Shown here piece after piece: positions 16,409 to 60,597 of a DNA stretch of 64,000 nucleotides. Both the position numbers and the translations under genes were made by a program. The stretch covers positions 320,001-384,000 of the forward strand of contig CAVUWD010000016.1 in assembly GCA_963745025.1 (NCBI GenBank), read 5' to 3'. Under the pieces are notes generated by a model that was not told the DNA's origin, did no database searches, and worked only from the letters and a program-made list of their open reading frames with translations. Every line of letters starts with the position of its first letter. Position 1 is the first letter of the stretch. The stretch comes from an uncultured delta proteobacterium (GTDB taxonomy: Bacteria; Desulfobacterota; Binatia; JACPRU01).

Positions 16409-17641
16409 ATGGAAGCCCTCTACATCGTCGGCGTCGGCATGACGCGCTTCGGGAAGCTGCTCGAGCGTTCGGTGAAGGATCTCACCCGCGAGGCGGTGAC
16501 CGCCGCGCTCCGCGACGCCGGCTGCTCCGTGTCGGATCCTGAAGCGGCGTATTTTTCCAACGCGTGTCAGGGGCACATGCAGGGCCAGGATCTGATCCGC
16601 GGTGAGATCGCGCTGCGATCGATGGGCATCGAGGGAATCCCCGTGACCAACGTCGAGAACGCCTGCGCGAGCGCGAGCACGGCACTTTATGGGGCGGTGC
16701 AATTTCTGCGCGCGGGTATGGGCGAGATCGCGCTCGCCGTCGGCGTAGACAAGATGTACTCGACGGACCGCGCGAAGATGTTCAGCGTGTTCGACAGCGG
16801 GTGGGACGTGGAGACGGTGGAGGAGAACCGGCAGCGCTTGCTCGCTCTCGGGGCGGGTGTCCCGGTTCCCGAGGGCACGATGTCGACGCGACCGTACAGC
16901 GCGATGATGGACGTGTACGCCGCGTGGGCGCGCTTTCACATGCGCACGTTCGGGACGACGCGGGAACAAATCGCCGCGGTCGCGGCCAAGAACCACCAGC
17001 ACTCGACGGAGAATCCTCTCTCGCAGTACCGCGAGGCCTACAGCGTGGAAGAGGTGCTGAGGGCGCCGCCGATCACCTATCCTTTGACGCTGCCGATGTG
17101 TGCGCCGATCAGCGACGGCGCGGCGGCGGCGGTCATCGTCCGCGAGAGCGTGCTCGGGCGCTTTGATCGGCGCCGTGCGATCAAGATTTGCGCGTCGGTC
17201 TTGATGAGCGGCACAGACCGGCGGCCCGAGGAGGTCGAGAAGCACATCGGGCGCCGCGCGGCGTTGAAGGCCTACGAGCAAGCGGGAGTCGGCCCTCGAG
17301 ACATGTCCCTCGCCGAGGTGCACGACGCGACCGCGATGGGCGAGATCATTCAGATCGAGAACCTCGGCTTCTGTCCCTTTGGCGAGGGGGGGCCGACGGC
17401 CGCGCGCGGTGAAACGCGGATCGGCGGGCGCATTCCCGTGAACCCCTCCGGCGGCCTCGAATCGAAGGGACATCCGATCGGCGCCACGGGTCTTGGCCAG
17501 GTCTTCGAACTCGCGACCCAGCTCCGCGGTGAGGCGGGCCGGCGACAGGTCGAGAATGCGCGCTTCGCGATCGCCGAGAACGGCGGTGGCATCTACGGCA
17601 TCGAGGAGGCCGCCTGCTGCGTCACGATCTTGGGGGGCTGA
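16409..17641 (+). CDS. Thiolase family protein (SCP-x type)
   Basis: NVENACASAST, AEVHDA, SGGLESKGHPIGATG. Confidence 0.92.
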   Translation: MEALYIVGVGMTRFGKLLERSVKDLTREAVTAALRDAGCSVSDPEAAYFSNACQGHMQGQDLIRGEIALRSMGIEGIPVTNVENACASASTALYGAVQFLRAGMGEIALAVGVDKMYSTDRAKMFSVFDSGWDVETVEENRQRLLALGAGVPVPEGTMSTRPYSAMMDVYAAWARFHMRTFGTTREQIAAVAAKNHQHSTENPLSQYREAYSVEEVLRAPPITYPLTLPMCAPISDGAAAAVIVRESVLGRFDRRRAIKICASVLMSGTDRRPEEVEKHIGRRAALKAYEQAGVGPRDMSLAEVHDATAMGEIIQIENLGFCPFGEGGPTAARGETRIGGRIPVNPSGGLESKGHPIGATGLGQVFELATQLRGEAGRRQVENARFAIAENGGGIYGIEEAACCVTILGG

Positions 17642-18290
17642 GGCGTCGCCTGCCTCCCGGTCGCGAGCGCGCGTCGTTGGGTGGCAACAAGCCGTGCTCG
17701 ACGATGTCGTAGAACTCGGCGAAGGCCTGGCTCATCGTCAGCCCGACCCGCGCGAGCATTTCCGGGTCGACGAGCTGCGCGACCACGTTGAGCATGACCT
17801 CGGCGATGAGCTTCGCGTGGACGCCGCGAAAGTGCCCGCGCGTCGCGCCGTCATGGATGAGCCGCTCGAGGCCCGCGATCCGCTCCCGTTGATGGCTCAT
17901 CAGGCGCCGATGCGTGGCCGGAAAACGCGATAGATCGCGCACGAATTGCGCTCCGGCGTCGCGCGTGGCGATGATCGCGGCACCGAGGTAACCGGTGAGG
18001 GCGGCAAATGGATCCGTGGCCGCCGCGGCGGCGGCCACGCCCGCGCGCCGAAGCTTGGCGAGCCAGCGCTCGACGACGAGCTCGAAGAGCTTTTCGCGGC
18101 TCGGCGCGAGCTGATAGAGGGCGCGCTTGGAGCAGTGCAGCCGGCGCGCCAGCTCCTCGGTGCGGAAGTGCAGGAAGCCGTCGCGCAGGAAGACGTGCTC
18201 GAGCTCCTCGAGCAGGCGCTCCAAGCGTGGCGAAGCGAGGCGCAGGACAGGGACTGGCTTGGATGAGGAAGATTTCGCTTGACGCTGCAT
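17622..18290 (-). CDS. TetR/AcrR family regulator
   Basis: HTH VFLRDGFLHFRTEELARRLHCSKRALY; divergent from the apc-like operon. Confidence 0.88.
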   Translation of the reverse strand: MQRQAKSSSSKPVPVLRLASPRLERLLEELEHVFLRDGFLHFRTEELARRLHCSKRALYQLAPSREKLFELVVERWLAKLRRAGVAAAAAATDPFAALTGYLGAAIIATRDAGAQFVRDLSRFPATHRRLMSHQRERIAGLERLIHDGATRGHFRGVHAKLIAEVMLNVVAQLVDPEMLARVGLTMSQAFAEFYDIVEHGLLPPNDARSRPGGRRRLSPPRS

Positions 18291-18300
18291 GAAAACCCGT

Positions 18301-18326
18301 GGTACCGGGTGCGAGATCATAGTACC
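18301..18326. promoter_or_regulatory. Putative TetR operator GGTAC-N16-GTACC
   Basis: Spaced palindrome between the divergent TetR and apcA-like genes; same pattern at 28235-28260. Confidence 0.55.
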
Positions 18327-58870: not shown

Positions 58871-58891
58871 AAGGCGAGAAGAGGGAAGCCC

Positions 58892-59740
58892 ATGACGTAC
58901 GCGGCTGGGATCGACGTCGGATCGACGCACACCAAGGCCGTCCTCATCGACGAGGATCAGCGGATCGTGAGCCGGGCGCTCGTGGATACGGGAGCGAACG
59001 TCGTCACGGCCGCAGAGAAGGCCTTTCGCGCTGCCCTCGACGGTGCGTCCGCCTCCGAGGAGGAGGTGGCGTTCATCGTCGGCACGGGATACGGCCGCTA
59101 CAAGGTGACCTTCGGTGACGCGCAGGTGACGGAGATCAGCTGCCACGCGCGCGGTGCGGTGCTCATGTTCCCCGCGACACAGACGGTCCTCGACATGGGA
59201 GGCCAAGACACCAAGGCGATCCACATCGATCCGCGGGGAGAGGTCCTCGACTTCTGCATGAACGACAAGTGCGCCGCGGGCACGGGCCGCTTCCTGGAGG
59301 CCGCGGCCTTCGCCCTCGATCTCCCCCTAGGCGATCTCGGGCCGACCGCTCTCCGCTCGAAGAAGCCGGTGCAGATCACCACCACTTGCATCGTCTTCGG
59401 CAAGTCAGAGATCCTCTCCTGGCTGGCGCGCGGCAAGAAGGTCGAGGACATCCTCATGGGTGTGCATCGCTCGATCGCGGTGCGCTCGATGGCCCTCCTT
59501 CATCGCGTAGGCGTCAAGCCGCAGGTGACGTTCACGGGCGGGGTGAGCCGCAATCGCGGCATGGTCGAGGTGGTGCAGGAGATGCTCGGCGTGACCCTGA
59601 ACGTCAGCGAGGAATCGCAATTCATGGGCGCGCTGGGAGCCGCGCTTTTCGCCCTCGACCACATCCGCAAAAGCCGGACCGCCACCAAGCCTCCCGTGGG
59701 CAAACCCCTAGGCGCGAAGGAAGGGACGGCGCCGGCATGA
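58892..59740 (+). CDS. ASKHA ATPase electron-activating subunit (BadF/BadG/BcrA/BcrD family)
   Basis: [45 protein letters not shown]. Confidence 0.9.
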
Positions 59741-60597
59741 TGTTCACGGGCGGAGTCGACGTCGGATCGACGTACACGAAGGCGGTCATTCTCAGGGAGG
59801 ACGGCCGTATCGCCGCAAAGACGATGGTCGCCACCGGCTTTCGCCTGGCCGAGGCGGCGACCTGCGCGTTCGAGGACGCCATTGCCGCGGCGGGAACGAG
59901 CGAGCACGAGATCGCTTACGTGGTGAGCACCGGACTCGGCCGCTATCAGGTCCCGTTCCGCGACACCCAGGTCACCGAGCTCACGGCGAATGCGCGGGGT
60001 GCGCGCCACTTCTTCCCGAGCACGCGAACCCTGCTCGACGTCGGCGCCCAGACCATGAAGTCGAGCCGCCTCGACGAGCGCGGCAAGGTGAAGGCGTTCC
60101 GACTCACCGACAAGTGCGCGGCCGGGACCGGAGCGTTCCTCGAGACGACGGCTCGCTACCTCGGCTACGAGATCGACGAGATCGGCCCACTCACCGCCAC
60201 GTCCAAGGAGCCCGTCGCGATCTTCGCAGCCTGTGCAGTATTCGCCGAGTCGGAGGTCATCAATCACGTCTCCTCCGGCCGCGCCCCGGCGGACATCATG
60301 CACGGCGCCATCGTCTCGCTCGCCGACCGCTCGGTCCAGCTCATGAAGCGGACCGGCATCGAGCCCGAGATCACGCTCGTCGGCGGCATTATGCGCTTCG
60401 AGACGATGGTCCGCGTGATGAGACAGGAGCTCAAGACGGCGGTGAACGTCCCGCCGGAGGACCTCGCACAGTACACGGGAGCGATCGGCGCGGCCCTCCT
60501 CGCTCAGCGGCGGCTAGAGAAACGTTGCGGCGAGGCCGGGGTGAACGGATCGTCGAGGGCGGCGTGCTCGGGGTCCGCTGCCGGGTTCTCGCGTTAG
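59737..60597 (+). CDS. Second ASKHA ATPase activator subunit
   Basis: [36 protein letters not shown] overlap with the previous gene. Confidence 0.9.

Follow-up and report, generated by a model that had tools for sequence, protein, structure and literature searches.

A Binatia-like genome region with ethylbenzene dehydrogenase-, ketone carboxylase- and benzoyl-CoA reductase-like genes is probably a patchwork of three modules

The window analysed here is a 64,000-nucleotide stretch of DNA from an uncultured delta proteobacterium (contig CAVUWD010000016.1 of assembly GCA_963745025.1, positions 320,001 to 384,000), in which an earlier note had seen a nearly complete anaerobic alkylbenzene or aryl-ketone route spread over three gene clusters: a ketone carboxylase (module A, 18365-27451), a molybdenum (Mo) enzyme resembling ethylbenzene dehydrogenase (EBDH; module B, 44416-56039) and a benzoyl-CoA reductase (module C, 56360-60597). 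Our results indicate that the region, from a Binatia-like bacterium, is probably a patchwork whose three modules were inherited separately, and not one pathway. The closest named relatives are Binatia for module B, Binataceae followed by Actinomycetota and Gammaproteobacteria for module A, and Chloroflexi for module C. Modules A and C each add a member to a kind already known, module B is a new form within the EBDH/S25DH branch, and the weight of the finding rests almost wholly on module B. What the analysis shows is gene content, motifs, family placement and the conservation of the module B operon; every substrate and reaction named below is inferred.

The genes behind the proposed route (two thiolases, apcABCD(E)-like genes with a CoA ligase, EBDH-like alpha and beta subunits and four bcr-like genes) are all intact open reading frames (ORFs) at the positions in Table 1, as found in a six-frame list of 248 ORFs with Pfam run on 67 and NCBIfam on 30 of them, and their matches, at E 1e-38 to 1e-230, are not due to chance. 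None reaches the curated Aromatoleum/Thauera cut-off in NCBIfam (bits/cut-off: EbdA 611/2000, EbdB 315/740, ApcA 336/1250, ApcB 160/250, ApcC 566/1500, ApcD 319/1500, BcrC 274/421, BcrB 183/487); these cut-offs are strict, and scores below them mean "not close orthologs" and no more. Between the three clusters lie housekeeping genes, among them birA, groEL/ES, aat and tadA (Pfam), and the GC content of the modules, 0.655-0.673, does not tell them apart. On indirect evidence the host is probably Binatia-related, in keeping with the earlier view that it lies outside Rhodocyclales: relatives of module B point there, as do the D subunit of module A (76% identity to a Binataceae protein), an acyl-CoA mutase with 71% identity to one in a related locus (L004), and the short ANL protein, whose Atlas cluster is commonest in Binatota (eight members with a phylum).

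The molybdoenzyme operon of module B

The best solved relative of the module B alpha subunit is EbdA, and the residue set H54, C58, C63 and C101 (the His/3Cys set of FS0), D200 (the Mo ligand) and K427 is present, as in EbdABC of Aromatoleum aromaticum (PDB 2IVF), S25DH, S26DH and p-cymene dehydrogenase, which have the same type II alpha subunit. A four-cluster beta subunit and the occurrence of several alphas per beta, as in Sterolibacterium, are also shared with the EBDH group. His164 lies about two positions off His192 of EBDH, presumably the active-site His of that enzyme, and is common in the clade, not invariant. The roles of the Asp Mo ligand and its partner Lys in the EBDH family have been described (PMC8840923, PMC6153880). 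The clade itself is tight, with the best 70 relatives at 61-85% identity and the next at 43% or less, and it stands on a long stem with FastTree support of 100; its named members are mostly Binataceae, along with metagenome-assembled genomes of Actinobacteria, Terriglobales and Sterolibacterium.

Module B departs from the EBDH group in its lack of a twin-arginine translocation (TAT) leader and of a gamma or delta gene, in a four-Cys FS4 motif, in having beta before alpha, in a fixed tail of ANL, U32 and membrane-protein genes, and in the low EbdA score given above. A TAT motif was found in none of the window alpha and its 70 closest relatives (a few had partial ones), compared with 4 of 50 more distant relatives. 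The "SRRA" of the window alpha lies within an insertion that is missing from a relative of 77% identity (P0005). Neither the operon in the window nor the conserved operons hold a gene for a heme-b gamma subunit or a delta chaperone, and the gaps are 28 bp between beta and alpha and 8 bp between alpha and the next gene. The EBDH-like label holds for the family and for the Mo and FS0 residues but fails for the features that define EBDH: the TAT leader, the gamma subunit and a [3Fe-4S] FS4.

In its third cluster motif the window's beta subunit carries four Cys, and so do all 19 operon betas compared, as against three in EbdB, PcrB, NarH and the TAT-type beta of locus L027. By ferredoxin-motif logic we read this motif as FS4, the [3Fe-4S] cluster that feeds the gamma heme in EBDH, and in module B it is predicted to be of low potential. 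EBDH, S25DH and S26DH are periplasmic alpha-beta-gamma enzymes (PMC8840923, PMC6016249, PMC7411048), and EBDH needs a heme of +256 mV and high-potential acceptors (PMC8840923). Given this need and the four-Cys FS4, the electron outlet of module B would differ, and ethylbenzene dehydrogenase activity is unlikely. The enzyme is most likely a cytoplasmic alpha-beta Mo-bisPGD protein (a molybdenum enzyme with two pyranopterin guanine dinucleotides) whose reaction would be water-based oxygen-atom transfer, with a hydrophobic substrate that the DUF1302 and DUF1329 proteins would import (we assume an uptake role for the former). Its [4Fe-4S] FS4 would trade electrons with a lower-potential partner, replacing the heme-b gamma subunit, and the ANL trio, the U32 protein (presumably of UbiU/V-like chemistry) and the membrane protein probably supply or handle the redox partner or the substrate.

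Seven genes are co-transcribed behind the Mo alpha; they went unmentioned in the earlier note and alter the reading. A genome scan with the alpha subunit gave 28 loci with relatives of 63-73% identity and flanks of 10 kb, and the titles of these loci are nearly all Binataceae or delta proteobacterium, with one Gammaproteobacterium. Beta precedes alpha in 20 of the 28, and the other 8 hold a lone alpha whose neighbours are thiolases, acyl-CoA dehydrogenases, CoA ligases or nitroreductases. Behind the alphas of the 20 beta-bearing loci follow the degenerate ANL gene (18 loci), the short ANL, PaaK-like and U32 genes (17 each), the membrane protein (15) and moaA (14), giving the conserved order beta-alpha(1-3)-ANL-ANL-PaaK-U32-membrane protein, and tail genes are missing only at contig or flank ends, save in L027, which is without moaA. 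Most loci have two or three tandem alphas with variable active-site loops. Upstream of beta in eight loci (L002, L006, L009, L010, L011, L013, L016 and L023), two CrtO/phytoene-dehydrogenase-like flavoproteins, a pair that we take to be comparable to the limonene dehydrogenase pair CtmAB, alternate with SCP2 proteins. None of the 28 loci has bcr or apc genes near the Mo alpha. No description of this operon was found in the literature searched, from which subscription papers were largely absent, and no match to the Mo alpha (E 1e-100) was found on plasmids.

MqnC-like or futalosine-pathway genes accompany a few of these operons. In the gammaproteobacterium L027, mqnE-A-C-D lie directly after the operon (17749-21555), and in L004 and L018 an MqnC-like radical SAM gene (below cut-off) follows it; most other loci end about 2.3 kb past the membrane protein, so that the link stands for three loci and gives no rate. 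The window has neither moaA nor an mqn gene, and its operon ends in DUF1329 and DUF1302. The membrane protein, a candidate membrane or quinone link, is predicted to be a four-helix bundle, and a fold search placed cytochrome bd (Z 13.0) and b561 (Z 10.7-11.0) amid unrelated four-helix bundles; a complex prediction with beta was uninformative (score 0.00). L027 also has, upstream and on the opposite strand, another alpha-beta pair of DMSO-reductase II, which is of TAT type. In L018 (12887-15675) and several MFD loci, alpha and other genes are frameshifted, probably through long-read errors and not as pseudogenes.

Ketone carboxylase and aryl-CoA reductase

The six genes of module A are spaced by 3-25 bp in the order alpha'-small-alpha-D-epsilon-ligase, the first five of which define the five-subunit ketone carboxylases (PMC5214803), a source that also cautions that distant members cannot be given a function. 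Gene order, ASKHA motifs and four Cys in the small subunit are those of the Apc/Acr family; the R/KERIDxxG fingerprint is not matched exactly, the window having QERID. With acetophenone carboxylase and its benzoylacetate-CoA ligase (ApcABCDE-Bal, PDB 5L9W) the module shares architecture, gene order and ATP motifs, and it differs in its D subunit (742 amino acids versus 684 in Aromatoleum ApcD), in four subunit models far under cut-off, in the lack of an ApcE match and in a ligase that is not PaaK-type. Its likeness to Acr of Rhodococcus aetherivorans (PMC13677872) extends to the five-gene order, the long D and the divergent epsilon, and its D subunit has 45-52% identity to those of Rhodococcus and Neorhizobium operons of Acr build; unlike Acr, it belongs to its own subclade (relatives at 71-96%, one named Binataceae), has a PRK06155-like ligase instead of a CoA transferase, of which none lies next to the module, and is flanked by TetR genes on both sides.

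The D family is large (1090 of 8000 scored candidates at E 1e-50), and among the best 120 relatives the named ones come from Binataceae (76%) and, at 57-60%, from Pseudonocardia, Frankia, Sulfobacillus, Nevskia and Gammaproteobacteria. D was also matched on ten plasmids, six of which were examined for operon comparison, the identities being 52% (Neorhizobium), 49% (Cupriavidus), 45-46% (two Rhodococcus), 45% (Halorientalis) and 30% (Haloterrigena). Scored with the ApcD model, the window reaches 319 bits, close to the long forms of Neorhizobium (322), Halorientalis (312) and RHA1 (299) and far from the Apc-branch Haloterrigena (681), and in a 27-row carboxylase tree it falls among the long forms with support of 98/95. 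By these sequence comparisons module A groups with the long Acr-side carboxylases and not with the Apc branch, which speaks against the apc-like genes as an acetophenone step. In extracts, the five-gene enzyme of R. aetherivorans, whose D has 86 kDa, carboxylates ketones from acetone to 2-hexanone and not acetophenone (PMC13677872); this 2026 paper assigns the long forms to the carboxylation of acetone and alkanones. In its Supplementary Table 5, CoA transferases go with Neorhizobium and Frankia casuarinae and an acetoacetate-CoA ligase with Cupriavidus, and Haloterrigena, placed near Aromatoleum, has a gene of phenylacetate-CoA ligase type; RHA1 does not appear there or elsewhere in the supplement and serves as a proxy only. 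The carboxylase-linked ligase of the window shows no relation to the Haloterrigena PaaK-type ligase (E 0.17) and is not Bal-like.

The epsilon subunit has no match to the ApcE model. A hidden Markov model (HMM) of its relatives finds the epsilon of Neorhizobium at E 9e-6 (397 targets), Cupriavidus at 0.02 and RHA1 at 0.76, pairwise comparison being weak (RHA1 E 0.35, Neorhizobium E 0.003), and the window protein gives a weak lead to uroporphyrinogen decarboxylase (URO-D; 0.87). The Haloterrigena epsilon (L034, 8410-9378), which matches the ApcE model, is annotated as a uroporphyrinogen decarboxylase family protein, and epsilon subunits may have a URO-D-like barrel fold. The two related TetR genes on either side of the operon have a 9-mer in common at their starts (18297 and 28222), with further GTAC-type repeats near each copy, and this 9-mer is absent from the promoter between modules B and C; a palindromic TetR pattern had 2 matches, and 6 of 100 shuffles do as well. 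Most likely, module A would be a five-subunit ATP-dependent methyl-ketone carboxylase of the long Acr-side type. It would make a 3-oxo acid from an aliphatic ketone or from another ketone that is not acetophenone, and the ligase transcribed with it would activate this acid for thiolysis.

Module C shares with the 3-methylbenzoyl-CoA reductase (MBR) MbdONPQ (PDB 9G87) two catalytic and two short activator subunits, and its catalytic pair is closer to MbdO/N than to BzdO/N (bit scores in Table 1) or to the dehydratase HadBC (112 and 134 bits only). Glu60 corresponds by motif to the catalytic Glu65 of BzdO, and together with three Cys it matches in motif and spacing the residue set described for BzdO (PMC11971306), so that catalytic Glu and cluster Cys are kept. 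Unlike MbdONPQ, it has no adjoining dch/had/oah genes, ferredoxin or benzoate-CoA ligase. Relatives named among the best 120 are Chloroflexi (70-75%), and plasmid searches gave no match to the MbdO-like protein (E 1e-40). Module C is a credible MBR-type class I aryl-CoA reductase and an ordinary member of its family, which would dearomatise a substituted benzoyl-CoA, and it is the best sign of anaerobic aromatic metabolism in the host.

One route or several

That the three modules form one anaerobic alkylbenzene or aryl-ketone route of divergent enzymes, with the alcohol dehydrogenase encoded elsewhere, is in our judgement highly improbable. Every step type but the alcohol dehydrogenase does lie within 44 kb, EbdA is the closest solved structure to the Mo alpha, the carboxylase genes follow the apcABCDE-ligase order (PMC5214803), and a short-chain dehydrogenase/reductase (SDR) gene stands directly before beta in L027; however, the Mo enzyme lacks TAT and gamma and has a four-Cys FS4, the carboxylase is on the Acr side with a ligase unlike PaaK-type Bal, and the 28 loci never tie the Mo operon to bcr or apc genes. 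The reported absence of SDR and of dch/had/oah genes from the window was borne out: HMMs of 7 SDRs and 5 crotonases gave no match in the six-frame translation (leave-one-out controls recovered 7/7 and 5/5), no dch/had/oah gene was found within the window, and its sole Zn-ADH-fold gene is a PIG3-type quinone oxidoreductase scoring above cut-off. The LLM enzyme put forward for the alcohol step is a Rv2161c-type F420 protein in the valS-nadC run without linkage to such a step, and as an alcohol dehydrogenase it was rejected, distant LLM paralogs (28-40%) occurring in just 3 of the 28 loci. What survives of the aryl-ketone or hydrocarbon pathway is a ketone-carboxylase module and a real class I aryl-CoA reductase; the single EBDH-Ped-Apc-Bal-thiolase-Bcr route does not.

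Modules B and C could work together without A, with p-cymene dehydrogenase-like hydroxylation of a benzylic methyl group, activation of the acid by the PaaK-like enzyme and MBR-type dearomatisation of the substituted benzoyl-CoA. The two are divergent over 320 bp, the reductase is MBR-type and the PaaK-family ligase of module B has an intact P-loop, but bcr genes lie upstream of beta in none of the 19 loci with sequence there, the Chloroflexi affinity of the reductase suggests separate arrival, and the high-potential outlet on which EBDH depends for benzylic hydroxylation is lacking here; we consider this combination unlikely. Module B could also be biosynthetic or reductive and not a catabolic hydroxylase. 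It would then build or modify a quinone-like cofactor, starting from intermediates of the futalosine pathway or others that derive from chorismate, and the Mo enzyme would take away or shift an oxygen atom. Small-molecule biosynthesis typically involves U32 and PaaK-type proteins, mqn genes or an MqnC-like gene follow the operon in L027, L004 and L018, the single plasmid relative of the U32 protein (27%) lies within an aminodeoxychorismate cluster, and FS4 is predicted to be of low potential. Against this stand the several alpha paralogs with variable loops per beta, like the catabolic S25DH set (PMC6016249), the lone alphas next to thiolases, acyl-CoA dehydrogenases and CoA ligases, the SCP2 and DUF1329 genes flanking the operon and the lack of an mqn gene in the window, and we give a biosynthetic role an outside chance. 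Equally tentative, and rather doubtful as it stands, is the proposal that module B represents an undescribed class of cytoplasmic EBDH-family molybdoenzymes in which the periplasmic heme-b outlet is replaced by the [4Fe-4S] FS4 and a dedicated futalosine-derived naphthoquinone carrier; the PaaK-like, U32 and MqnC-like proteins encoded alongside would tailor this carrier, and the small membrane protein would handle it.

A patchwork of three modules remains the reading we favour, with several observations weighing against it. Modules B and C, being divergent across 320 bp, possibly share one promoter, and a PaaK-type ligase, of the family of Bal, is present in module B. The closest alpha relatives (77-85%) lie outside the 28 loci and are hence without context, and with flanks of 10 kb the modules may still occur together in other parts of those genomes. 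Long branches mark the carboxylase tree, in which proxies stand for the sequences of Aromatoleum and R. aetherivorans. The last gene of module A is a CoA ligase, whereas most acetone-type operons have a CoA transferase or an acetoacetate-CoA ligase, and this terminal PRK06155-like ligase therefore suggests a bulkier, possibly aromatic product.

Other genes of the window and significance

Both SCP2-type thiolases sit outside the carboxylase operon; the thiolase of the Aromatoleum route has itself yet to be assigned to a gene (PMC4729919). A split B12 acyl-CoA mutase (39965-42015, minus strand), the one with the 71% copy near the Mo operon in L004, has 2-hydroxyisobutyryl-CoA mutase (4R3U) as its best solved match. 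It carries Leu at the specificity position, which we take to be typical of pivalyl-CoA mutase. A third CoA ligase (63497-63994, minus strand) is cut off where the window ends; it has 54% identity to the ligase of the carboxylase operon and stands before a BchU-like O-methyltransferase. A terminase large subunit-like ORF (5620-7017, minus strand; phrog_2, E 1e-20) is likely a mobile-element remnant; no further phage gene was recognised among four other ORFs tested. A PEP-CTERM-like protein (3682-4413, plus strand) scores just below cut-off, and a MraW/RsmH-family gene (8552-9811, plus strand) has no recognised cell-division genes adjoining it. Rfam and ARAGORN gave no matches on the window, and an FNR-like consensus scan gave 15 loose matches versus 8.1 expected, with none in the intergenic region between modules B and C.

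Table 1. Positions of the features discussed, numbered from the first nucleotide of the window
Feature	Position	Strand	Remarks
F420-dependent LLM oxidoreductase (TIGR03619)	15126..15962	+	269 bits, cut-off 167; outside carboxylase operon
SCP2/Ltp2-type thiolase 1	16409..17641	+	59.5% identity to thiolase 2
TetR regulator 1	17622..18320	-	Weak TetR_N match; 38% to TetR 2; divergent from carboxylase operon
9-mer, candidate local operator	18297..18305	+	Second copy only at TetR 2 start region (28222); picked post hoc
Ketone carboxylase alpha' subunit (apcA/acrA-like)	18365..20293	+	NCBIfam; ASKHA ATP motifs present
Small Zn-finger subunit (apcB/acrB-like)	20304..20663	+	Two CxxC; four Cys
Ketone carboxylase alpha subunit (apcC/acrC-like)	20689..22821	+	50-53% to Rhodococcus, Neorhizobium, Cupriavidus operons
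Ketone carboxylase D subunit, long type	22834..25062	+	742 aa
Epsilon subunit, divergent	25066..25836	+	256 aa; HMM of relatives
ATP-dependent acyl-CoA ligase, PRK06155-like (below cut-off)	25841..27451	+	Not PaaK-type Bal
TetR regulator 2 (start approximate)	27479..28222	-	Pfam
Nitroreductase-family flavoprotein	28494..29330	+	Pfam
SCP2/Ltp2-type thiolase 2	43066..44298	+	Convergent on Mo operon
DUF1302 outer-membrane protein (start approximate)	44416..45900	-	Pfam
DUF1329 LolA-like periplasmic protein, twin-arginine leader	45909..47213	-	Pfam; distant DUF1329 closes operon in 8 loci
Four-helix membrane protein, 180 aa (weak CopD match)	47210..47752	-	Invariant His10; 15 loci
U32-family Fe-S protein	47749..48855	-	Pfam; 17 loci
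PaaK/F390-type adenylating enzyme	48861..50156	-	P-loop intact; 17 loci
Truncated ANL-fold protein	50153..50851	-	No Pfam match; 0.97 to clusters named hypothetical or AMP-binding; 17 loci
Degenerate ANL-fold protein	50841..52064	-	P-loop motif missing; 18 loci
Mo-bisPGD alpha subunit, DMSO reductase type II, EBDH/S25DH branch	52073..54988	-	Asp200, Lys427, FS0 ligands kept; no TAT leader
Fe-S beta subunit, 16 Cys	55017..56039	-	FS4 predicted [4Fe-4S], not [3Fe-4S]
Class I benzoyl-CoA reductase, MbdN-like subunit	56360..57547	+	538 bits MbdN, 97 BzdN
Class I benzoyl-CoA reductase, MbdO-like catalytic subunit	57581..58870	+	518 bits MbdO, 94 BzdO
ATP-dependent activator subunit 1	58892..59740	+	Pfam, NCBIfam
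ATP-dependent activator subunit 2 (true start ~59737)	59737..60597	+	44% to subunit 1

In conclusion, EBDH, Apc and Bcr labels can sum to a false ethylbenzene route in genome scans, and the pathway claim itself is of little weight. Module B is the part worth pursuing. The characterised alkyl hydroxylases of this branch in the papers cited (EBDH, S25DH and S26DH) are periplasmic and have a high-potential heme, and a conserved clade that lacks TAT and gamma, has an altered exit cluster and carries as many as three alphas in tandem offers a concrete system in which to study how such chemistry proceeds in the cytoplasm. The words "benzoyl", "aromatic", "ethylbenzene" and "acetone" are absent from the main text of the main genomic survey of Binatota (PMC8262859), and our findings suggest an oxygen-independent side to this phylum. 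If the class with a naphthoquinone carrier were real, soil Binatota could hydroxylate C-H bonds of several hydrophobic substrates, or run the reverse reaction, independently of oxygen.

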